Positions 1 to 13,687 of a stretch of DNA of 13,687 nt are shown in pieces (position 1 is the stretch's first letter; every line of letters starts with the position of its first letter). The stretch lies in the IMG/VR virus record IMGVR_UViG_2526164652_000005, one strand, 5' to 3'. The DNA is from a virus (Duplodnaviria > Heunggongvirae > Uroviricota > Caudoviricetes). A program made the translations under genes and the position numbers. A model generated the notes under the pieces. It saw nothing but the letters and a program-made list of their open reading frames with translations. It made no database searches and was not told the DNA's origin.

Positions 1-288
1 TCAATGGTTGGCGTCATTATCTTTTTCTCTTTCTGAACGTGAATATTGCGGTGGACGGTTCATCAGCTGTGGGGCAAGACGTTTTGCCACCTGAAGAATA
101 ACCACCACCGCAGCGGGAAGCATGAGCAAAACACCGAGAAAAATCATCAGAATCTGCACTTCTGGCCGAGAAAATGGCTCAGGCAGCGACAGGGAGTCGC
201 TTACCGACAGCAGAGCCACCGCCAGTAGCATCATTCCGATAAATTCCAGTATCAACACGCCTTTAGGCAATTTACCGATCGCGCGCAT
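1..288 (-). CDS. ybjC: small inner-membrane protein YbjC (95 aa), complete; stop codon at 1-3
   Basis: Translation matches remembered E. coli YbjC; hydrophobic two-helix profile; divergent from grxA as in E. coli. Confidence 0.8.
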   Translation of the reverse strand: MRAIGKLPKGVLILEFIGMMLLAVALLSVSDSLSLPEPFSRPEVQILMIFLGVLLMLPAAVVVILQVAKRLAPQLMNRPPQYSRSEREKDNDANH

Positions 289-447
289 ACGCTTCCCTCT
301 GCAAAGTGAGCCTTCAGTCTAAAACTTTTCACTGTATTGTGTTTAACAGTTATAGCTTTTAGCAATTAATGCAACAGGTTAAACCTACTTTCAGCGAATA
401 CATTTTAGCGTGATCATTACAGGCATAAATCTATGAGGAGAGAAATA
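289..447. promoter_or_regulatory. Divergent ybjC / grxA promoter region
   Basis: 159-bp AT-rich spacer between divergent starts; GAGGAG Shine-Dalgarno at 435-440 before the grxA ATG at 448. grxA is a known OxyR target, but I could not confidently delineate the OxyR motif by eye. Confidence 0.45.
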
Positions 448-705
448 ATGCAAACCGTTATTTTTGGTCGTTCGGGTTGCCCTTACTGTGTGCGTGCAAA
501 AGATCTGGCTGAGAAATTGAGCAATGAACGCGATGATTTTCAGTATCAGTATGTAGATATTCGTGCGGAAGGGATCACTAAAGAAGATCTACAACAAAAG
601 GCAGGTAAACCCGTAGAAACCGTGCCGCAGATTTTTGTCGATCAGCAACATATCGGCGGCTATACCGATTTTGCTGCATGGGTGAAAGAAAATCTGGACG
701 TCTGA
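448..705 (+). CDS. grxA: glutaredoxin 1 (85 aa)
   Basis: Near-identical to remembered E. coli GrxA (MQTVIFGRSGCPYCVRAKDL...), CPYC active site. The track ORF begins at an upstream in-frame ATG (433), but the SD at 435-440 supports ATG 448. Confidence 0.93.
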   Translation: MQTVIFGRSGCPYCVRAKDLAEKLSNERDDFQYQYVDIRAEGITKEDLQQKAGKPVETVPQIFVDQQHIGGYTDFAAWVKENLDV

Positions 706-714
706 TCGTCTGAC

Positions 715-747
715 AAGCCCTCGCGTTGAGGGCTTTACTGATTTTTT
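715..747 (+). terminator. Putative intrinsic terminator after grxA
   Basis: Stem aagccctc (715-722) / gagggctt (728-735) with 5-nt loop; T6 run at 742-747, not immediately adjacent to the stem. Confidence 0.4.
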
Positions 748-1112
748 CTGTGCTGTGGTTTAAACAAACTACTGATAAATAAGAAACACAGTGCCCCCAG
801 CGCACACCAGAACACCGCGCTTAGTAACCATGCCAGCTCTTGCCAGAATGAGCGCGTCGGTGAAAAAAACAGCCGCATAATGAGCATTGAACAGGGTGCC
901 GCCAGCATTGCGCCAAATAGAGGTTTCAGGACTTCTCTACGCTGTGAAAAGAAACTGGCAACAGCTCCAGGAAGAATGAAAAACAGCAAGCCGATTTCAG
1001 GATGCCCGGCAGCCCGAAAAGCGCCTTTCATGTGCGTCGCCAGAAAAAGGCACACCACAATGAAGAGGACAAAACAGCAGATTGCCCCCGCCCAACGTTG
1101 TTTATGTTTCAC
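735..1112 (-). CDS. ybjM: inner-membrane protein YbjM (125 aa)
   Basis: Translation matches remembered YbjM; multi-helix hydrophobic profile; conserved position between grxA and ybjL. Confidence 0.8.
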   Translation of the reverse strand: MKHKQRWAGAICCFVLFIVVCLFLATHMKGAFRAAGHPEIGLLFFILPGAVASFFSQRREVLKPLFGAMLAAPCSMLIMRLFFSPTRSFWQELAWLLSAVFWCALGALCFLFISSLFKPQHRKNQ

Positions 1113-1381
1113 TCGTTCCTCCTGACACTGCGTCTATCGAACACATTTTTCGCCAGTGTGGCGTTCAGTAAGATAAAGCCGCTTCGCATTCCATGCTAAT
1201 ATAGGCCAACGAAATTCATATAGCCGTTGATACCTAATGTGATTACACTAGTAAAATATATTGTTACTTTACTATCGTTTAGGTGCGCTGAATGAATCTG
1301 CGCCCTGAATTCTGGTAAAAAACATTATCGTAAATTACCATTTCTTTCAACAGCTTACTAGTAAACAAGAAGTTAGCCTCC

Positions 1382-3067
1382 GTGAATATAAACGTCGCCG
1401 AATTGTTAAATGGGAATTACATTCTGTTATTATTTGTGGTCCTCGCGCTTGGGCTATGTCTCGGAAAGTTACGACTTGGTTCGATCCAACTGGGTAATTC
1501 CATTGGCGTTTTAGTCGTATCGCTGTTATTAGGCCAACAACATTTCAGCATTAACACCGATGCGCTTAATCTTGGCTTTATGCTGTTTATTTTCTGCGTC
1601 GGGGTCGAAGCCGGACCGAACTTTTTTTCCATTTTTTTTCGCGATGGGAAAAATTACCTAATGTTAGCTCTGGTGATGGTTGGCAGTGCGCTGGTGATCG
1701 CCTTAGGGTTAGGTAAGCTGTTTGGCTGGGATATTGGCCTGACGGCCGGTATGTTAGCAGGCTCTATGACGTCGACACCGGTTCTGGTCGGTGCTGGCGA
1801 TACACTGCATCATTCCGGCATGGAAAGCAGGCAGCTCTCACTGGCACTGGATAATCTGAGCCTCGGGTATGCCTTAACCTATTTAATCGGTCTGGTGAGT
1901 TTGATTGTTGGTGCGCGTTACTTGCCGAAATTGCAGCATCAGGACTTACAGACCAGCGCCCAGCAAATCGCCCGCGAACGTGGCCTGGACACTGATGCCA
2001 ACCGTAAGGTTTATTTACCGGTGATCCGCGCCTATCGCGTCGGCCCGGAGCTGGTGGCCTGGACCGACGGCAAAAATCTGCGTGAACTGGGTATTTATCG
2101 ACAAACCGGCTGCTACATTGAACGTATTCGACGTAACGGGATTCTGGCAAATCCAGACGGTGATGCCGTGCTACAAATGGGCGATGAAATAGCGTTGGTA
2201 GGCTATCCCGACGCCCATGCCCGACTCGATCCCAGCTTCCGTAACGGTAAAGAAGTTTTCGATCGTGACCTTCTCGACATGCGTATCGTCACTGAAGAAG
2301 TGGTCGTTAAAAACCATAACGCTGTAGGTAAACGTCTCGCACAACTGAAGTTGACCGATCACGGTTGCTTCCTTAACCGCGTCATTCGTAGCCAGATTGA
2401 GATGCCGATAGATGACAACGTCGTGCTTAACAAAGGTGACGTTTTACAAGTCAGCGGTGATGCCCGTCGCGTAAAAACCATCGCCGATCGCATCGGCTTT
2501 ATCTCGATTCACAGCCAGGTCACTGACCTGCTGGCATTTTGCGCCTTCTTTGTTATTGGGCTGATGATCGGGATGATCACCTTCCAGTTCAGCACATTCA
2601 GTTTCGGCATGGGGAACGCTGCCGGGTTGTTATTCGCCGGAATTATGCTGGGCTTTATGCGTGCTAACCACCCGACCTTCGGTTACATTCCGCAAGGTGC
2701 ATTAAGCATGGTGAAAGAGTTCGGCTTGATGGTGTTTATGGCAGGCGTTGGTCTGAGCGCCGGTAGCGGTATTAATAACGGCCTGGGCGCGATTGGCGGT
2801 CAGATGTTGATTGCCGGATTAATTGTCAGTCTTGTGCCCGTGGTTATCTGTTTCTTGTTCGGTGCTTATGTATTGCGAATGAACCGCGCACTGTTGTTCG
2901 GCGCAATGATGGGCGCACGCACCTGCGCGCCGGCAATGGAGATCATCAGTGATACAGCTCGCAGTAACATCCCTGCGCTGGGCTATGCGGGCACCTACGC
3001 AATCGCCAACGTCCTGCTGACGCTGGCAGGGACAATCATCGTCATGGTATGGCCAGGATTAGGATAA
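1382..3067 (+). CDS. ybjL: putative transporter YbjL (561 aa), AAE-family permease with two central TrkA-C/RCK_C domains; GTG start
   Basis: Full-length match to remembered YbjL; membrane domains flank a soluble central region; synteny with ybjM and grxA. Confidence 0.88.
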
Positions 3068-3302: not shown

Positions 3303-3521
3303 TCAAAGAGAGAGCGCCACCTGTCCTGATTTCATTGGATGCGGCTGAACCGGATTTGACTCTTTTGGCGTTGCAATCGAACGAACAAAAGTTTCATGGG
3401 TAACAAAAGTATGGCTGCAGTTAATGTTCTGGCACTGGTTGTAACGCTCTTTGGTCAATGAAGATACCTGAAAACTGCTGCGAGTATGGGCGGCACTTCC
3501 ACACAGTGGGCAAATCATCAT
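3303..3521 (-). CDS. ogr: Ogr/Delta-family zinc-finger late-gene transcriptional activator (72 aa)
   Basis: CPLCG...CQNINC zinc-finger motif and overall similarity to P2 Ogr. GGGAGA SD sits 9 nt upstream of the ATG at 3521; the track ORF starts at an upstream GTG (3554), which I judge less likely. Confidence 0.8.
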   Translation of the reverse strand: MMICPLCGSAAHTRSSFQVSSLTKERYNQCQNINCSHTFVTHETFVRSIATPKESNPVQPHPMKSGQVALSL

Positions 3522-3611
3522 TTTTCGAGTTCTCCCAATTTTTGCTAAATTCACAATAATGATACCGAATTATTCCATTTTGCAAACTTAAAAGTTCTCC
3601 ATTGCGAAGAA

Positions 3612-4712
3612 TCATTCCATTTCGAAATCATCAATCCTCACTTCAAGCTCCAGACTGGTCGTAAAACCATTATCCGGGCTTACGGTATGCGTCAGAGTCG
3701 TAATGGTCCATTCCGCATCATCTATCGGCTGTTTAAAGCCACTGACTTTCACTGGCATTTCCGTGTAGAGATCTGCCCGCCCTTCCGCCAGTTGTAACGA
3801 GAATGACGCAACGCCGCGTTGCAGGCGTTCCCACTGCATTTTCGCCGCTCGTTCGGTGTTGCTCCGGTTGGCATAAGTGCGATTAAGTACCAGCACGTTT
3901 TCATCCGTACCCACCAGGTAATCGCCCTGCTTCGCTTCCGGCTCTTTCTTCTGCTTCTTAGTCCTGCGCTTACGCTTCACCGTGGTGCTTTCTTTCTTCG
4001 CGGGTTCGCGGGTATGCAACCAGCTGGCAATTACGCCCGTGTAGGCTCCGCGATCTGCCAGGGTAAAGCGGTGACTGTCGCCGTCCTTACGTGTGATAGT
4101 GATAACCGGTAGTGGTTTACCGCTGGCGCTTTTACCCTGTCCCTGCCGGATGAATACCAGATTGCCATTTTTCACCGACGCAATAGCACCGTACTGGCGC
4201 GCCAGCCGCATCAGAAAACTGCCGTCACTCTCATTGGTCTGGTCTATATGCTCCACGGGTTTATCCGACAGGTCTTCACCCAATGCCATCTTCAGTTTGT
4301 GCCGCGCAGATATTTCCTTCACGACTTCCCCAACGGTGGTCTTGTGCCACGATTTTTCACGGCGGGTATTCAGCGTTTCACGAAAATCAGCACTTCGCGC
4401 CCGGATAGTCAGGCGGTCCGGTGCGCCAGTGTGTTCAATCTCGTCCACCGTGAATGCCCCTTTCGGGAAAAGCGGCTGCCCCTTCCACCCCAGCGCCAGC
4501 GTAATGACCGCACCACGGCGCGGCAGCACGATTTTTCCGTCGGCGTCGTCCAGCTCCAGATCAAGCTGGTCCGCTTCAAATCCCCGATTGTCCGTCAGCG
4601 TCAGACTCATCAGGCGGTTATCCAGCACAGTAGTGATATCCCTGCCCTCAATACTGATGCTGAATGCAGGAGTTTTGTTGCCTTTGTTAAGCAGTTCAGA
4701 GCTGAAATTCAC
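3612..4712 (-). CDS. D: P2 gpD-family tail protein (366 aa); GTG start overlapping the U stop (GTGA)
   Basis: Similarity to P2 gpD; conserved position between U and ogr; translational coupling to U. Confidence 0.85.
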   Translation of the reverse strand: MNFSSELLNKGNKTPAFSISIEGRDITTVLDNRLMSLTLTDNRGFEADQLDLELDDADGKIVLPRRGAVITLALGWKGQPLFPKGAFTVDEIEHTGAPDRLTIRARSADFRETLNTRREKSWHKTTVGEVVKEISARHKLKMALGEDLSDKPVEHIDQTNESDGSFLMRLARQYGAIASVKNGNLVFIRQGQGKSASGKPLPVITITRKDGDSHRFTLADRGAYTGVIASWLHTREPAKKESTTVKRKRRTKKQKKEPEAKQGDYLVGTDENVLVLNRTYANRSNTERAAKMQWERLQRGVASFSLQLAEGRADLYTEMPVKVSGFKQPIDDAEWTITTLTHTVSPDNGFTTSLELEVRIDDFEME

Positions 4713-5194
4713 GACAGCAGCCCTCCCACCGTTTTACTGATATCGCTTAATGCAGATGTTGCCGTGTCCTGCAGATTATTCAGCTGCGCACTGAGATCAC
4801 CGAACATATCGGACAGGGATTCATCCACCCGTTTGAGCGACAGGGTGAACTCAATCCGGCGCGGCATACCGTCGCGGAAAAACTCCGTTTTAGTCTGATT
4901 CAGTCCCTCAATCACATACATGCCGTAAATCGTGCCGCTGCCTTCAATCAGGGGCCATGCTTTCCCCTGTTCTGCCATCTGCTCAAGTGCCAGCAACGAC
5001 AGCCTGCCGCCTGTTATCTCCGGCATAAGAACACCGGAAAGCGTCAGCATGTCGTTGTCCGGTCCCAGAAACTGCGTGGACGGACGACGATTTACCCGGC
5101 TGTTAGCCGCATGTCGCCAGCTGCGTTGATACTGCAGTTCCTGATACGGCACGGTGCGCAGCATAAACACGTACAATCCCAGCACCATCATCAT
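4709..5194 (-). CDS. U: P2 gpU-family tail protein (161 aa)
   Basis: Similarity to P2 gpU (MMVLGL..., QRSWRH motif); ATGA start/stop overlap with the end of T. Confidence 0.85.
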   Translation of the reverse strand: MMMVLGLYVFMLRTVPYQELQYQRSWRHAANSRVNRRPSTQFLGPDNDMLTLSGVLMPEITGGRLSLLALEQMAEQGKAWPLIEGSGTIYGMYVIEGLNQTKTEFFRDGMPRRIEFTLSLKRVDESLSDMFGDLSAQLNNLQDTATSALSDISKTVGGLLS

Positions 5195-8100
5195 GCGTCG
5201 TATCCCCCCTGATCGCTGTAGTTACTCCTGGCTTTTGCCTTCAACCTGCGTTCACGTTCATCAAGCTGGCGGGCCACCTCCCGCGCAATATCCTGCGCAC
5301 TTTGTCCTGGCTGTGTCTGGATGATGATCTGCGTCGGTGCTTCAATCCGGTAAATGGGCGGCACAGTAGCTGCACGACTCACCATCGCTTCACCGCCTTT
5401 CGCGGGAAGCGCCAAAGGATGCAACGGTGGAAGCTCTGCTGGCGCGGCAGCAACGCCCATCATTCCGGCGACAACGGCAGCCAGTGCAGCTGTATTTCTC
5501 CGGCTGGTCACGTTTGCCGGGCCGTTAACAATTTCCGGCCCGTTTTCACCGACGATGCCAAACTGCCCACGCGGGATATAGCCGCCGCTGTCATACATAC
5601 CCGCAAAGCCATATCCCCATGACGGAAAATCACCCGATGGCATCATCACTTTACCGTCTGCATTCACCGTCGCAGGTTGCTGACTCGTCACGCTTTCCGG
5701 TAGTTTTGCCTTTGCGGCCTCTTTACTGACAATGCCGAGTTTCTCCAGCAACCAGGAAACGCCGGATTTCAGGGAGTCCAGCGGATGCATGACCATATTC
5801 AGCCCTTCCGCCAGTGCCTCCCCGAATCGCCGCCCCATTGCCGCTGCACTCTGCAGTTCGGCAGAGGTCGACTTAACGGGCGTCAGCAGATCAGTAAACC
5901 AGCCCCACAGCGCCTGTACTTTGTCGCCAATCCACTGAAACACGGGCTTAAGCGGTTCGAATGCAGCACTGATGGGACCTGCCGCCGCTTTGAATCCTTC
6001 CACCACGCCACCGAGAAATGCGGTGATGGGTTGCCAGTATTTCCAGACAACCAGCGCCACGCCCGCCAGTGCAGTAACCACAAGACCTATCGGACTGAGC
6101 AGAGCACCTAACAGACCAGATACGGCATACAGGGCAACGCGCAGCATCGCCAGCGGACCGGATGCCAGCACACGCAGCACCGCGCCTGCGGCAGCCAGTC
6201 CACCGCGTAGTGCTGCCAGTGGATTCATAAACATCACAGCAACCGCACGTAACCCGGATAATCCAGACCGCAAAAGTGCAACCGGCGCACCTGCTACCGT
6301 TTTCAGGACATTTCCCGTCAGTGATGCCGTGCGGCGCAAAGACGACAACGGCGCAGTAAGTAAACCTGCGGCGTTGCCCGATGAAGCAAGCCCGCGTCGC
6401 AGCAGTGCCTGTGGTGCGCCAGCCAGGACAACGCACTGCTGGTTCGAGTTACTGCTGCCGTAACGGAAGGTAACATTTTGATACCCAGCACAGAGAATCC
6501 CAGACGGATCACTGCCAGCGGCCCCAGCACTGCAGCCAGCGCCACCGCTAAGGTGCCGAGGCCCACGGTAACGGCAGCCACCACAGCGGCTACTTTCATC
6601 AGTGTGCCTGTCAGTTCCGGGTTAGCTTCCACCCAGCGACGCAACGCCCCTGTGACGCTTTTCACCGTGAACAGAATATCCATCAGCGGCTGGCGCAGCG
6701 TTTCGCCCAGGCTGCTGAAGGTGTTCTGCGCTCCGGTTTTGACCAGCAACCACTGAGCAGAAAGTGAGTCCTTGTTGATGTCGGATTCTTTCTGCATGGA
6801 ACCGAGCGCATCATTGCCCGTTGTCAGTTTTAGCTGGCGCTGCAGTTCCGGAAGGTTGTTTGCCAGTTTCGCTGCGTCATCGCCAAACTCTTTACCAAAC
6901 AACATGGTCATGGCAGACAGGCGCTTATCCTGCGGCAGTGCGTTCACCTTCTCCAGCACGCGCTGGATGGTTCCCATCGCATCCTTCGTCATCTGCTTTT
7001 CAATCACTTCAGGATTGAGTTTCAGCAGATTCATCCCTTCAAAGAAACTCTTGCTCTGCATGGTGGCAATGGACAATTCACGCACCATCGCGTTTGCTGC
7101 ACTGGCTGCAACCTCTGGCGCAGCGCCCAGTGTCAGGAAGGTGGAACCCAGCGCCGCCGCTTTACGATAATCCAGACGATCAGCCACACCGCCCAGGCGT
7201 TGCATGACATCAATGATGTCTACCCCTTTCGACATGGCGTTATCATCCAGATAGTTCAGCGCATCACCGAGCTGTTCAATATTGCGGGTAGGGATTTTGT
7301 AGAGCTGGGCGATTTTCCCCAGACTTTCTGACAGTTCATCCGCTGGCAGCTCAAAGGCTGTTGCCGCCTTTGCTGCCGTACTGGCGAAGGCCAGCAGGTC
7401 ACGTTTCTGGTCCTCCCAGCTGTCGTCAGGGTTTGCAACGTTCATACGCGCACCACCTTCAACCAGTGCAGCGAAGTCCACCGCACCGTTTTCCATCGGC
7501 AACTGTTCGCTGGCAGCTTTGATGGCATCCTGCATTTCATAAAAACGTGCAGTGCGGTTGCCATTATCGTCACGCAGACCATTGACCTGCTTTGTCACAC
7601 CTTTCATGGCATCTTCCATGCTGGTATAGCTTTTTACTGCCGCCATCACTGGCGTCCCCATTGCCAGCCCTGCCGCCGTGGTGGTGGCTCCGGCTCCTGC
7701 GATGCGATCGCGCACCTCCAGCGAACGGGCATAACTGGCACGCGCTGCATTCATCCTGCGCTGAGCTTCCCCCAGTCGCTTCAGCCGCGCCTCCTGTTTC
7801 GACAGTTCCTGGTTATAACGTGATGTTTCACGGGCTAAACGGGCAGTTGCTCCCGCATCATCTTTCGCAGAAATTCCCGCCCGGTACAGTTCTGCACGCA
7901 CAAGCGCCGTTTGCTTCTGCAAATATTTTTGTTGTTCTTCCAGGCGTTGGACTGCCAGCGTTTGCCGACCTAAAGCCACAAGGTGCCGTTGTGATGGTTG
8001 TTCCATCGCTTCCAGCTCAGAACTAAGCAAATTTGCCTTCTGTCTGGCATAGTTCAGCCTGTCGCCTAACTTTTTGTTATCGGCCTGCAGCTTGCGAAAT

Positions 8101-8264
8101 TTTTCCAGGCTGTTACCCGCCTGATTGAGTTGCTTTAATGCGTCACGGGAGTTTCTGATTGCGCCAGCCAGCTCTTTCGAACTGGCCTGTGCAGCACGGA
8201 ATGGGCGGGTGAGTTTGTCAACCGCATTAAGAATGACCTGCAGGCGCAGGTTATTATCACTCAT
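5191..8264 (-). pseudogene. T: Tail tape-measure protein gpT, reading frame disrupted: N-terminal ORF 6318-8264 and C-terminal ORF 5191-6348 in a different frame
   Basis: N-terminal ORF begins MSDNNLRLQ..., coiled-coil rich, P2 gpT-like. Its last ~35 codons are low-complexity out-of-frame-looking sequence. The other frame carries proline-terminated 21-22 aa repeats that continue to the U overlap and is open upstream to a stop at 6622-6624. Together these imply a -1 register change around 6380-6500. Confidence 0.7.
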
Positions 8265-8693
8265 CGTTAGCCCCGCTTCTCTGAATCGCTTTATACCGCC
8301 ATTCCAGCACTTCGGTCAGCGGCATAACGTCAGTAACGGATGGCGGCCAGTGAAAGATGGTGGCGATATCAGCCACCAGATCGTCAACCGTCAGGCTGTC
8401 GGTAAACCGGCAAGCACCGACTTCTTCAACAAAAAAGTGACAACCTCAACCGACATAGCGGTGAGATCTGCCGAGTCCATCTCTGCAATTTCTTGTGCGG
8501 TCAGTGCCGGACTGGAAATGCAGGGGATCACGGTCATCATCGCGTTCACATCCATATCCATAATGGCCTGCAGGCGTATACCGCGCAGCGCACCGGACTG
8601 CGGTTTACGCAGCACAATTTCGGTAATTTCTGTTTTACCGCGCATGATGGGGGTATCCAGTTGAATGGTCTTTTCAGTCTGCTTATCGCTCAT
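8257..8693 (-). CDS. E': E+E' fusion product via programmed -1 ribosomal frameshift (about 145 aa)
   Basis: The -1 frame is open from the slippery site to a TGA at 8257-8259, ending ...RSGANDE and overlapping the T start codon. Geometry matches the P2 E/E' arrangement (analogous to lambda G/GT). Confidence 0.55.
8391..8693 (-). CDS. E: P2 gpE-family tail assembly chaperone (100 aa)
   Basis: Position immediately upstream of T and similarity to P2 gpE; contains the slippery heptamer near its 3' end. Confidence 0.8.
   Translation of the reverse strand: MSDKQTEKTIQLDTPIMRGKTEITEIVLRKPQSGALRGIRLQAIMDMDVNAMMTVIPCISSPALTAQEIAEMDSADLTAMSVEVVTFLLKKSVLAGLPTA
8430..8436 (-). other. Slippery heptamer T_TTT_TTG for the E/E' -1 frameshift
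   Basis: Minus-strand codons ACT TTT TTG in the E frame (plus-strand caaaaaa at 8430-8436). Confidence 0.6.
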
Positions 8694-8747
8694 TTTATTG
8701 TCCTGTAAATTGGGTTCTGGCGCGGTATCCCGCGCCGTTCAGATACA

Positions 8748-9263
8748 TCAGAGGCCGAGGGCGTTGCGGTGCGCTTCCATCAGGTCCACACCGTCCACAA
8801 TTTCCACCATGTTGATAAGGTCCACTTCATAGAGCACCTCACCATTGATGGTCAGCTTCGCGTAGCTGTTGGTACTGGTCACTTTGGTGGTGTTGCTTTC
8901 GCCCGTCTTCCACTCGCCGGAATCCACTTCTTTGTGACGTCCTCGCACCACAAGCTCCACAGCCTGCACTTCCCCGGTATCGTCACGCTGGATAGAGCCA
9001 GTAAAGCGCAGCTGGATGCCATCCACAGTGGCTTTGCCCATCTGCTTAAACAGCAGCAGTTCAGTACCACCAATGGAAAATTCTGTGTCCAGAGCACTGT
9101 CATCAAGCCCCAGATCCACATCCACCGCCCCCGGCATTCCGCCGCCGCGATACTTCTCATATTTGCGGGTGAATTTCGGCAGCGTCAGCGACTCAACGAT
9201 CCCCTGCCAGTTGTTCCCGTCGTTAAACAGGTTCAGGTGTTTTAATTTGCGTGGTAAAGCCAT
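8748..9263 (-). CDS. FII: P2 gpFII-family major tail tube protein (171 aa)
   Basis: MALPRKLKHLNLFNDGNN... matches the P2 FII N-terminus; located between FI and E. Confidence 0.88.
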   Translation of the reverse strand: MALPRKLKHLNLFNDGNNWQGIVESLTLPKFTRKYEKYRGGGMPGAVDVDLGLDDSALDTEFSIGGTELLLFKQMGKATVDGIQLRFTGSIQRDDTGEVQAVELVVRGRHKEVDSGEWKTGESNTTKVTSTNSYAKLTINGEVLYEVDLINMVEIVDGVDLMEAHRNALGL

Positions 9264-9272
9264 GTTGTCCCC

Positions 9273-10445
9273 TTACGCGCTGACCTGGCTGGCGAAATTC
9301 ACCAGGTACTGATCGGTGATGCGCTGACGCAGCATCAGGTTTTCAAGTGGCGGCACTGGCGTGTAGTCGTAGTCGATAGTGAGTTTCCCGGCTTTCAGAG
9401 TGTCTTTGTCGTTCACCGACTCGTCCAGCCAGCAATCACCACCAATGAGATACCCCTGACTGACCAGGCTGCGCATTTTGGCGCGGATACCTTCGATAAT
9501 GTCGCGGGCCAGCGACGGATTCAGCGGTTTGTCCACTGCCCACATGTGCGCTTCTGCCATCGTGTCCATCAGTACCTGCGCCGTGCGGGTGTAGTTTTCG
9601 AAGGCAAAGAGCGGGTCATCGCTCAGACAGCGGGAACCCCAGAAGCGGAAACCGTCTTTGCGGATAAGCGTGGTAACGTCGTTCTGGTTAAGCAGACCTG
9701 CATCGGTTGCCGGGTCCTGCAGATCCCAGAACACATCAGCAGAAATTCCGGTGACACCGTTCACGCCCACGTTGGACAGGCTTTTGTGCCATCCGGTCTG
9801 CTCATCAATTTTGGCGCGCAGACCGAGCGCACGGGCGGTGGCATATGCCGTTGCTTCGGCATTCAGCACCGTGTCCCAGCCCGTAAAGTCAGGCCAGATC
9901 AGCATCCCTTCGCGCTGGCTGAAGTTTTCACGGTAAGTGATCGCCTCCTGTACCGTCTTGCAGCCATACGCTGACAGGTAAGCAAACCCACGCAGGCTTT
10001 GCGCCACGCTCAGCAACTCAGTCGCAACGGCTTTGTTATCGTGGCCTGGCACGCCGAGAATGCGCGGTTTAACGCCGAGCTGTGACTGGGCAGATAACAG
10101 GGCTTTCATACCTGTTTTTTTACCTTCAGCAGTCACTGCGCCGATGATATTGGTCGTGGTTTCGTCTTCCGTTTCACCCTGCGGCACACGCACAACAACG
10201 GTCACGGGTTTTGCCTGGTCAGCGATGGCATCCAGCGAACGGGCCAGAGTACCGGACTCACCCGCTTTACCGCTGGCAGTCAGCACATCAGTGATCAGCA
10301 CGGGTTTATTAAGAGGAAACATTTTTGCATCGGCATCATCGCCCGTGCAGACCATACCCACAATGGCGGTGCTCACCGTGGTAATGGATCGGGTGCCTTC
10401 GTTGACTTCAACAACGCGCACCCCGTGGTGGTAATCCTGAGCCAT
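9273..10445 (-). CDS. FI: P2 gpFI-family contractile tail sheath protein (390 aa)
   Basis: Strong similarity to P2 FI along its length (DYHHGV..., [13 protein letters not shown]..., [14 protein letters not shown]...). AGGAGG SD lies 9 nt upstream of the ATG. Confidence 0.9.
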
Positions 10446-10521
10446 AGTGGCGAACCTCCTGATTGGATTAGGCTTCGCCCTATGTTGAAGTGATTGTGCC
10501 TGACAAACAGCTAAGCGCAGT

Positions 10522-10539
10522 TGTACCGTTATTCATACA
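10522..10539 (-). promoter_or_regulatory. Candidate Ogr-dependent late promoter element (TGT-N12-ACA dyad) upstream of FI
   Basis: tgtaccgttattcataca has the TGT-N12-ACA dyad characteristic of P2/P4 late promoters and lies about 85 bp upstream of the FI start. Confidence 0.4.
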
Positions 10540-10587
10540 AAATGACGGTATTTGTCTGCTTGCAGGGATAATCAACATAATGCTGAT

Positions 10588-11160
10588 TCAGGGGGATTCA
10601 TTGCTCTTATTTGCCGGAAATTTTCTATAAATTGTGGAAACACCTACATCAAAAATCAGTGCAATACGCTGTCTTGATTCTCCGGCCTCGAGTAAACGTC
10701 CAATCTGTGCCCACTGTTCGGTGATCAACTTAGGACGGCGTCCACCTACTCTGCCTTTGGCGCGAGCTGCAGCCAGCCCCGCCTTGGTACGTTCAACTAT
10801 CAGTTCGCGCTCCATTTCAGCCAGGGCCCCCATGACATGAAAAAAGAAACGGCCCATTGGGGTACTGGTATCAATACTGTCAGTCAGGCTTCGGAAATTC
10901 ACGCCACGCTGGCGCAGCTCTTCTATCAGCGTAACGAGATGCCGCATACTGCGCCCCAACCTGTCCAGCTTCCAGACAACCAGAGTGTCACCTGCCGATA
11001 ATGTCCTGAGCAGTTTTTTCAGTCCCGGTCTGTCGGACTTAGTGCCACTGATTTTGTCCTCAAAAATCCGCTCACATCCCGCGCAGTTCAGTGCATTACG
11101 TTGCAAATCGGTGTTCTGGTCATTTGTTGACACGCGTACATAGCCAATAAGCATGATCAA
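10588..11160 (-). CDS. Serine-recombinase DNA invertase, Hin/Gin/Pin/Cin family (190 aa)
   Basis: Very high similarity to Hin/Pin: catalytic-serine motif GYVRVSTNDQ, conserved core, C-terminal helix-turn-helix. True start may be the second in-frame ATG. Confidence 0.9.
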   Translation of the reverse strand: MIMLIGYVRVSTNDQNTDLQRNALNCAGCERIFEDKISGTKSDRPGLKKLLRTLSAGDTLVVWKLDRLGRSMRHLVTLIEELRQRGVNFRSLTDSIDTSTPMGRFFFHVMGALAEMERELIVERTKAGLAAARAKGRVGGRRPKLITEQWAQIGRLLEAGESRQRIALIFDVGVSTIYRKFPANKSNESP

Positions 11161-11172
11161 TCCCCTGAATAA

Positions 11173-11472
11173 AAACCGGGGATGATGCCAGTTAGCCGTT
11201 ATCTCTGCATTTTCATAAACGTTGGTTTGGGAGAAGCGGCTAAAAGAAATGTAGGGACAGGGGCGAATCAGATACCTGATATGGGTAGTTTTATGCTTTC
11301 TGCTTCAGTTCCTGGATATCAAAAATTGCCATCCGGTTTAATTATTCAATGGGGGCCAATTGATGTTCCGCTGACGTCTCAGGACACAGTAACCTATTTT
11401 CCGATTGCATTTCCGAATAGATGTCTGCGGGTATTTGCGACTCAGGATTACACTCCCGGCAGTGCAAATGTT
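11173..11472 (+). pseudogene. Truncated variable tail-fibre C-terminal segment (alternative Sv'-type cassette), cut by IS1
   Basis: Reading frame open from 11173, passes through the crossover site and runs into the IS1 left end at 11472/11473; the last 8 codons and stop of the tracked ORF are IS1 sequence. Tail-fibre assignment is by context and a weak remembered resemblance ([14 protein letters not shown]). Confidence 0.4.
11210..11235. other. Candidate Hin-family crossover site (hix/gix/pix-like 26-bp imperfect palindrome)
   Basis: ttttcataaacg-tt-ggtttgggagaa; reverse complement ttctcccaaaccaacgtttatgaaaa resembles hixL TTCTTGAAAACCAAGGTTTTTGATAA. Lies between the invertase gene and the divergent tail-fibre fragment, inside the latter's reading frame. 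Confidence 0.4.
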
Positions 11473-11495
11473 GGTAATGCTGCCAACTTACTGAT
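11473..11495. repeat. IS1 left terminal inverted repeat
   Basis: ggtaatgctgccaacttactgat; matches the reverse complement of the right end with few mismatches. Confidence 0.85.
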
Positions 11496-11527
11496 TTAGT
11501 GTATGATGGTGATTTTAAGGTGCTTGC

Positions 11528-11803
11528 GTGGCTTCCATTTCCATCAGATGTCCTTCCTGCTCCGCTACTGAAGGCGTGGTGCGTAACGGCAAAAGCACTG
11601 CCGGACATCAGCGCTATCTCTGCTCTCATTGCCGTAAAACATGGCAACTACAGTTCACTTACACCGCCTCTCAGCCCGGTACGCACCAGAAAATCATTGA
11701 TATGGCCATGAATGGCGTCGGATGTCGCGCCAGTGCACGCATTATGGGCGTTGGCCTCAACACGGTTTTACGTCACTTAAAAAACTCAGGCCGCAGTCGG
11801 TAA
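11528..11803 (+). CDS. insA: IS1 InsA (91 aa)
   Basis: Matches remembered IS1 InsA ([23 protein letters not shown]...). Confidence 0.95.
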
Positions 11804-12225
11804 CCTCGCGCATACAACCGGGCAGTGATGTGATTGTCTGCGCTGAAATGGACGAACATTGGGGCTACGTCGGTGCTAAATCACGTCAGCGCTGGCTGTT
11901 TTACGCGTATGACAGGATACGGAGGACGGTTGTGGCGCACGTCTTCGGTGAACGCACTCTGGCCACACTGGAGCGTCTTCTGAGCCTGCTGTCGGCCTTT
12001 GAGGTCGTGGTATGGATGACGGATGGCTGGCCGCTGTATGAATCACGCCTGAAGGGAAAGCTGCACGTTATCAGCAAGCGTTACACTCAGCGCATTGAGC
12101 GACATAATCTGAATCTGAGACAACATCTGGCAAGGCTGGGACGGAAGTCACTGTCGTTCTCAAAATCGGTGGAGCTGCATGACAAGGTCATCGGGCATTA
12201 TCTGAACATAAAACACTATCAGTAA
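11722..12225 (+). CDS. insB: IS1 insB' frame; expressed as the InsAB' transposase by -1 frameshift at A6C (11779-11785)
   Basis: Matches remembered IS1 InsB; the ttaaaaaac motif lies in the insA/insB overlap. Confidence 0.9.
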
Positions 12226-12240
12226 GTTGGAGTCATTACC
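12218..12240. repeat. IS1 right terminal inverted repeat
   Basis: atcagtaagttggagtcattacc. Confidence 0.85.
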
Positions 12241-12242
12241 GT

Positions 12243-12551
12243 GTTCGTGAACTCGGTGATGCTAGTGTTCCTTTTTCGTTCGATGTTCATGCGATGATTT
12301 ATAGTGATGATGCACCATCATTAGAAAATCATCTGCATAAAGTCTTCAACGAAAAACAGGTCAATAAAATTAACTCACGAAAAGAGTTTTTCAACGTAAA
12401 TATTAAAGAAATTAAGTCTGTTATTGAAGATATGAACATCAACGCACAATGGACAATGTTTGCGGAAGCGAAAGAATATAGAGAGTCACTGGCGATTGAG
12501 CAAGAGCGCAAAGCAGCAACTTCCGCCAACGATGAACTGCATGTTGCTTAG
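12243..12551 (+). pseudogene. 3' fragment of a T5orf172-domain (GIY-YIG-like) protein gene, truncated at its 5' side by IS1
   Basis: Frame is open directly from the IS1 right end (...RVRELGDASVPFSFDVHAMIYSDDAPSLENHLHKVFNEKQVNKINSRKEFFNV...); this resembles the C-terminal T5orf172 motif. No start codon of its own until 12294. Confidence 0.5.
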
Positions 12552-12610
12552 CAATGTATGTTTCATAGTAATCACACATTGATTACTGGTTGTATATACA
12601 GTTAAATTTA

Positions 12611-12634
12611 GCCCTCTGATATGAGGGCTTTTTT
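12611..12634 (+). terminator. Intrinsic terminator-like hairpin immediately upstream of int
   Basis: Stem gccctc (12611-12616) / gagggc (12623-12628), 6-nt loop, then T6 (12629-12634). Confidence 0.5.
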
Positions 12635-13687
12635 ATGGCAGTACGAAAACTCACCACAGGAAAATGGCTTTGCGAATGTTACCCCGCCGGACGTAGTGGA
12701 CGTCGTGTGCGTAAACAATTCGCCACCAAAGGCGAAGCTCTGGCTTTTGAGCGTCACACGATGGAAGAAACCGAAGCAAAGCCCTGGCTGGGTGAATCAG
12801 TGGATCGTCGAACACTGAAAGACGTGGTTGAACTATGGTTCAAACTACATGGTAAATCTCTGACAGCTGGGCAGCATGTCTATGACAAATTGCTGTTGAT
12901 GGTTGACGCTCTGGGCAATCCTCTTGCAACCGATCTCACCTCTAAAATGTTTGCCCACTATCGAGATAAACGCCTGACAGGCGAGATCTACTTCAGCGAG
13001 AAATGGAAGAAAGGAGCAAGCCCGGTCACCATTAACCTGGAGCAAAGCTATCTAAGTAGTATTTTTAGCGAACTATCCCGTCTGGGCGAATGGTCGTATC
13101 CGAACCCACTGGAGAACATGCGAAAATTCACCATCGCAGAAAAAGAGATGGCATGGCTTACCCATGAGCAGATTGTTGAATTGCTGGCTGATTGCAAACG
13201 TCAGGACCCAATTCTGGCACTGGTAGTTAAGATATGCTTAAGCACAGGCGCACGCTGGCGTGAAGCCGTAAATCTTACTCGCTCACAGGTGACCAAATAC
13301 CGAATTACCTTTGTCAGAACGAAGGGGAAGAAAAACAGAAGCATCCCTATCAGTAAAGAGCTTTACGAAGAGATCATGGCGCTTGATGGGTTCAATTTCT
13401 TCACAGACTGCTATTTTCAATTTTTATCCGTGATGGAAAAAACGTCTATCGTGCTCCCTCGCGGTCAACTCACACACGTTCTGCGCCATACGTTTGCGGC
13501 GCACTTCATGATGTCGGGTGGAAACATTCTGGCCTTACAAAAAATTCTCGGACACCACGATATAAAAATGACTATGCGTTACGCACATCTGGCACCGGAT
13601 CATCTGGAAACGGCGCTCCGTTTCAATCCTCTGGCAACGCTGCCAAGTGGCGACAAAGTGGCGGCAGCGGTTGGCATTACCCCGTAA
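12635..13687 (+). CDS. int: P2-family tyrosine integrase (350 aa), complete; TAA at the window end
   Basis: Similarity to P2 Int (MAIKKLDDGRYEV... versus MAVRKLTTGKWLCE...); conserved catalytic region LSTGARW, RHTFAAHFM, LGHHDIKMTMRYAHL. Confidence 0.88.
   Translation: MAVRKLTTGKWLCECYPAGRSGRRVRKQFATKGEALAFERHTMEETEAKPWLGESVDRRTLKDVVELWFKLHGKSLTAGQHVYDKLLLMVDALGNPLATDLTSKMFAHYRDKRLTGEIYFSEKWKKGASPVTINLEQSYLSSIFSELSRLGEWSYPNPLENMRKFTIAEKEMAWLTHEQIVELLADCKRQDPILALVVKICLSTGARWREAVNLTRSQVTKYRITFVRTKGKKNRSIPISKELYEEIMALDGFNFFTDCYFQFLSVMEKTSIVLPRGQLTHVLRHTFAAHFMMSGGNILALQKILGHHDIKMTMRYAHLAPDHLETALRFNPLATLPSGDKVAAAVGITP

Follow-up and report, generated by a model that had tools for sequence, protein, structure and literature searches.

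The question raised by this locus is why the tail tape measure gene of a P2-like prophage, gene T, is spread over two reading frames, and whether this layout reflects an inactivating mutation, an error in the sequence or a recoding signal. In the window, by which we mean the whole stretch of 13,687 nt that was analysed, T occupies positions 5191-8264 of the minus strand (3074 nt). The list of open reading frames divides it into two minus-strand ORFs, 6318-8264 (648 aa) and 5191-6348, which lie in different frames, as a first-pass annotation of this DNA had recognised. That annotation had also placed the authentic continuation of the gene in the frame of the second ORF, and this is borne out by translation, the downstream frame being free of stop codons from at least position 6600 down to 5191; the two frames thus overlap broadly. 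The reading that we favour, with a probability of roughly 0.93, is that a real spontaneous mutation shifted the frame of T and inactivated the gene, namely the loss by slippage of one unit of a (CTGG)3 repeat, which became fixed in a lineage of Shigella flexneri.

The identification of 5191-8264 as T is based on a whole-length identity of 97-99.7% to annotated intact tape measure genes, on synteny, the gene being located between the E/E' chaperone genes and U-D, and on the match of the PF10145 (PhageMin_Tail) domain to residues 246-457 (E = 2.5e-18). The order E-E'-T-U-D and the PF10145 domain are shared with the P2-like gpT of the Peduoviridae, represented by Klebsiella phage 4LV2017 (YP_009789858.1) and E. 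coli WP_097765208.1, to which the window gene is 96.7-99.7% identical at the nucleotide level. A megablast search with positions 5100-8400 of the window (3301 nt) against phage records yielded 33 records that matched 80% or more of the query with an identity of about 97%, and in each phage record among the matches listed the matched span was 3305 nt for the query of 3301 nt. In these relatives, for example in the phage-plasmid CP019275 and in phage 4LV2017, T is annotated as a single CDS of 3078 nt encoding 1025 aa, a length slightly above the approximately 1020 aa that had been estimated by joining the two ORFs. More than 95% of the homologues have a single uninterrupted ORF of 1025 aa. The nearest relative, in E. 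coli FDAARGOS_1248, differs by 9 mismatches over 3078 nt, carries (CTGG)3 and retains the intact 1025-aa ORF. In that strain the neighbouring chromosomal gene nfsA (locus L003, 3295-4017) is listed as a pseudogene interrupted by a stop codon, which has no relation to the prophage.

Alignment of the 3074-nt window gene with the intact 3078-nt genes revealed one gap of 4 nt and no other indels, so the exact lesion could be placed by DNA comparison with intact gpT genes. At the junction the sequence is GTC CTGG CTGG CTGG CGC in the relatives but GTC CTGG CTGG CGC in the window. All of the intact alleles contain CTGGCTGGCTGG at gene nucleotides 1839-1850, the sole tetranucleotide repeat of three or more units within T, while the site of the lost unit in the window is marked by the residual CTGGCTGG, i.e. 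(CTGG)2, at 6419-6426 on the minus strand. The mutant and intact alleles differ at the repeat by exactly one CTGG unit, with no further change there. The site falls within the interval 6380-6500 to which the junction had been assigned, and the register change is indeed -1 as had been described; the lesion itself is neither a 1-nt deletion nor a 2-nt insertion, the loss of 4 nt being equivalent to a 1-nt deletion only modulo 3. Comparison of the translation with the intact alleles shows that residues 1-616 of the 648-aa product are authentic T and residues 617-648 form an out-of-frame tail of 32 codons (about 35 had been proposed) that ends at a TGA stop. The 3' part of the gene, from 6426 to 5191, follows in the -1 register, corresponds approximately to residues 615-1025 of the intact protein and extends to the authentic stop codon, which overlaps the beginning of U. 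A ribosome translating this gene would leave the authentic frame after residue 616 and terminate 32 codons further on; the C-terminal 408 residues of the tape measure would be missing from the product. The window T is not one uninterrupted full-length ORF and, because it is frameshifted after residue 616, is a pseudogene of the P2-like gpT family rather than a functional member of it. Unlike the P2-like gpT genes considered above, the window copy is frameshifted at this point and resides in a prophage that lacks about 25 kb.

The repeat concerned has a well-known precedent. A passage of PMC12606429 citing Farabaugh et al. 1978 describes (CTGG)3 as the classic spontaneous hotspot of lacI, at which one unit is lost or gained, and presents this result as the founding example of replication slippage at short tandem repeats. 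The lacI hotspot and the T site have the same motif in the same copy number (CTGG x3), and in both a frameshift results when precisely one unit is lost or gained, such events recurring independently. Unlike the selected laboratory spectrum of lacI, the evidence for T consists of natural variation among prophages, and the gene affected encodes a phage structural protein and resides in a lysogen. On the basis of the repeat structure and the lacI precedent we infer that the lesion in T was made by slipped-strand mispairing during replication, by which one unit of (CTGG)3 would have been lost. The T site would then be a natural case of this textbook hotspot, one at which slippage has recurred within a gene for a phage structural protein. 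The lacI hotspot was measured again in Pseudomonas putida carrying lacI, where CTGG deletions predominate if the orientation of the gene is co-directional with the replication fork and insertions predominate if it is head-on (PMC3485313). The record of E. coli HS begins at thrL on the plus strand and has T at 945 kb, also on the plus strand. In the K-12 layout oriC lies near 3.9 Mb and the terminus near 1.6 Mb, and T in E. coli HS is probably co-directional with the replication fork. With this orientation a deletion bias would be expected, as in a co-directional lacI, and the ratio of CTGG losses to gains among full-length T genes, 6:1, fits it.

This ratio comes from an alignment of 68 full-length T genes taken from the fetched loci, in which the CTGG site is the only recurrent indel site and accounts for seven of eight indel events. 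One unit has been lost in the window lineage and in loci L004, L005, L127, L128 and L130, and one unit has been gained in L131. The slipped alleles stand on divergent backgrounds, 61-188 mismatches apart, and for most of them the closest slipped allele is far more distant than the closest (CTGG)3 allele: the distances to the nearest (CTGG)3 allele and to the nearest other slipped allele are 9 and 101 mismatches for the window allele, 12 and 79 for L005, 1 and 95 for L130, and 0 and 95 for L131. Because L004 and L128, which are 61 mismatches apart, could share one event, the independent losses number five or six; at least five independent losses and one gain thus appear to have taken place at a 12-nt site on divergent T backgrounds. 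Some of the slipped alleles known from single assemblies could be assembly errors, notably L280 (2x coverage) and L131. Taken together, these comparisons indicate that (CTGG)3 is an intrinsic mutational hotspot of the T family, which has apparently slipped independently in several other prophages. The feature is of modest interest as a lesion at a recurrent hotspot common to this tape measure family, and predictors of prophage integrity could check the CTGG site of T.

Two further features of the alignment may be mentioned. A second CTGGCTGG, also of two units, is found in the 5' region of T at 8164-8171 on the minus strand (gene nucleotides 94-101), and its length is constant in 68 of 68 aligned T genes, an invariance that fits a requirement for three units in hotspot behaviour. 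The only T gene of the 68 with an indel outside the CTGG repeat is that of L135 (IMGVR_UViG_2872174743_000010), where an unrelated 1-nt insertion at alignment column 2003 gives a gene of 3079 nt.

In wider collections the slipped alleles are rare. The 94 IMG/VR matches comprise four (CTGG)2, 89 (CTGG)3 and one (CTGG)4 alleles, i.e. five slipped contigs, and the 63 metagenome matches comprise one (CTGG)2, 62 (CTGG)3 and no (CTGG)4 alleles. Among approximately 950 complete E. coli genomes with the site, two have confirmed (CTGG)2 alleles and nearly all of the others have (CTGG)3; a synthetic (CTGG)4 query found no (CTGG)4 allele in these complete genomes, its best matches (96.4%) being the (CTGG)3 allele. 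In E. coli F829 and K99B the T gene is labelled 'frameshifted' by PGAP. A search of genome contigs with the loose variable-gap pattern GCGTTGTCCTGGN{0,12}CTGGCGC returned only chance matches in unrelated high-GC genomes, and the metagenome census of repeat number was made with a longer pattern.

The genomic context of T is that of a decayed element. Gene assignments were made from the ORF list and the annotation of near-identical E. coli loci and phage records. Positions 1-3067 carry the chromosomal genes ybjC, grxA, ybjM and ybjL of the E. coli/Shigella type, and beside ybjL, at 3303-11472 on the minus strand, lies the right-end remnant of a P2-like prophage, recognised from the annotation of near-identical E. 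coli loci and from Pfam labels in S. flexneri loci. On the minus strand this remnant, starting at 3303, comprises ogr, D (3612-4712), U (4709-5194), T, E' and E (8261-8693), the FII tube gene (8748-9263), the FI sheath gene (9273-10445) and a Hin/Cin-type serine invertase gene (10588-11160), followed on the plus strand by a C-terminal tail-fibre fragment (11182-11472). A complete IS1 of 768 bp, whose terminal inverted repeats were read directly, occupies 11473-12240 (plus strand). The left end of the prophage, at 12241-13687 (plus strand), consists of a DUF4041 gene fragment and a phage integrase gene (12635-13687; Pfam Phage_integrase), and is 99.9% identical to the integrase-bearing end of prophages of this type in E. 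coli genomes. The IS1 interrupts the tail-fibre gene segment and abuts the truncated DUF4041 gene. The invertase gene and the oppositely oriented tail-fibre fragment adjoining it are probably the remains of an invertible host-range segment.

Since the distance from the T repeat to the integrase end is 30.3 kb in the intact lysogen STEC309 and 5.8 kb in the window, IS1 included, about 25 kb of the prophage is missing; by comparison with STEC309 this part contained the fibre, baseplate, lysis, head, replication and immunity genes. Because the prophage is already a dead remnant, with approximately 25 kb replaced by IS1, the lesion in T would not be selected against and the gene would drift as a pseudogene. 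T has six private substitutions absent from the other sampled alleles, five non-synonymous and one synonymous, compared with 225 non-synonymous and 479 synonymous changes among 60 intact T alleles (Fisher one-sided p = 0.015, on just six substitutions), and this excess is consistent with the lack of selection maintaining T in the remnant. A tailocin-like function of the remnant was considered and rejected, as the baseplate genes and most of the fibre genes are missing and T is broken. The window resembles prophage decay by IS expansion in Shigella both in the IS1-associated deletion and in the presence of frameshifted genes in or beside the element, rimK being split in several strains; nothing essential sets it apart from that process, of which it is a typical example.

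Two other interpretations give the repeat itself a role. According to one of them, (CTGG)2, (CTGG)3 and (CTGG)4 are the states of a reversible contingency switch that toggles production of the tape measure, and hence of virions, ON and OFF. Both the loss and the gain of a unit on several backgrounds would suit such a switch, as would the occurrence of some slipped alleles in full-length prophage contigs at 0-1 nt from an intact allele (L130 and L131). However, the tract is just three units long, slipped alleles are rare (two among about 950 E. coli genomes, five among 94 contigs of IMG/VR and one among 63 contigs from metagenomes), the S. flexneri lineage is uniformly OFF, and the window prophage cannot form particles in either repeat state. 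No (CTGG)3 allele with the private SNPs of this lineage (AGT at codon 610 and CAG at codon 620) was found in IMG/VR or in the metagenomes; the combination of ON and OFF states on one background, by which a phase-variable locus is recognised, was thus not encountered in the S. flexneri lineage. We regard a switch as very unlikely. It is likewise very doubtful that (CTGG)3, beyond coding for Ser-Trp-Leu-Ala-Gly in T, has been kept as a 'fuse' through which P2-like prophages are inactivated unusually often or are toggled reversibly. If it had, the domestication of these prophages by enterobacterial hosts would proceed in large part through a defined tetranucleotide hotspot.

A sequencing or assembly error, with (CTGG)3 and an intact T in the true genome, had been left undecided against mutation by the first-pass annotation; the earliest assemblies of the lineage are indeed old drafts, and two S. 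flexneri loci, L222 and L227, show additional split genes (sheath and invertase) that could be homopolymer errors. Against this, the identical 648-aa truncated product was read in at least 24 contigs (33 blocks indexed in a public assembly collection), which differ in project and sequencing platform and include one complete genome, two NCBI drafts and several Logan read sets that were assembled independently. The entire window is an exact substring of GCA_000213715.2, identified in a passage of PMC6397287 as S. flexneri K-272, and the finished sequence CP026803.1, which also carries the allele, is given in PMC9455713 as the complete chromosome of S. flexneri 89-141. Of the eight loci shown, six have exactly this 3074-nt T and two depart from it by a single substitution, and all of the S. 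flexneri-lineage copies found have (CTGG)2. A clean loss of one 4-nt repeat unit is, moreover, atypical of platform errors, and the error would have had to strike a gene that has an excess of non-synonymous private changes and lies in an already deleted prophage. An error is in our opinion extremely unlikely, and of the two possibilities formerly left side by side the mutation is the one that stands. Because a finished genome, draft assemblies and several read sets agree on this allele, (CTGG)2 in T is best regarded as a mutation fixed in the S. flexneri lineage that includes K-272, 89-141 and others, where it could be used as a lineage marker.

Further split genes, inside and outside the region of the window, occur in individual S. 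flexneri strains of the window lineage (loci L221-L227). Several strains have rimK in two pieces of 89 + 197 aa; the sheath and invertase genes of L222 and L227 are split into 112 + 278 aa and 117 + 75 aa, respectively; L221 has shortened D and ogr genes; and L224 has a split nfsA. Real Shigella pseudogenes may account for some of these cases and homopolymer errors of the 454 era for others.

There is next to no chance that a full-length T is produced from the two frames by programmed -1 ribosomal frameshifting or transcriptional slippage, for although tail gene clusters do employ programmed -1 frameshifting, a -1 shift is what would restore the T frame and a canonical T TTT TTG heptamer lies 2 kb upstream in gene E (8436-8430), the zone in which both frames are open (gene nucleotides 1641-1947) contains neither an X XXY YYZ heptamer nor a homopolymer of five or more, and nearly all homologues have one 3078-nt T ORF, with (CTGG)3 in 89 of 94 IMG/VR and 62 of 63 metagenome matches, from which the two-frame layout differs by the 4-nt deletion only. 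Programmed frameshifting in T was rejected on these two grounds, the missing slippery site and the missing conservation, and the earlier preference for mutation or error over recoding proves well founded. Slippery heptamers are found within T only at nucleotides 231 and 831. The earlier remark that no slippery heptamer or homopolymer is visible at the junction held for runs of five or more, while the tetranucleotide tandem repeat located there had been overlooked. T shares the tail cluster and the -1 change with the tail assembly chaperone frameshifts, E/E+E' in P2 and G/GT in lambda; these have a slippery heptamer and are conserved across homologues, whereas the T junction has neither property.

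With a spontaneous frameshift by loss of a CTGG unit as the preferred explanation, the lesion in T is an ordinary prophage pseudogene produced by slippage at a recurrent hotspot, an already-known kind of event, and the current understanding of tape measure proteins and of recoding is unchanged by it. For annotation, 5191-8264 should be treated as one frameshifted tape measure pseudogene in a defective prophage, and neither as two genes nor as a recoding site.

The recoding site of this cluster lies in the neighbouring gene E. The T TTT TTG sequence is a canonical -1 heptamer located in frame in E (8391-8693, minus strand), and a short ORF of the GpE family follows it in the -1 frame, extending to about 8261, with an ATGA overlap with the start of T. 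We take this site to be the conserved programmed frameshift of the E/E+E' tail chaperones of P2-like phages, and in the window it looks intact.
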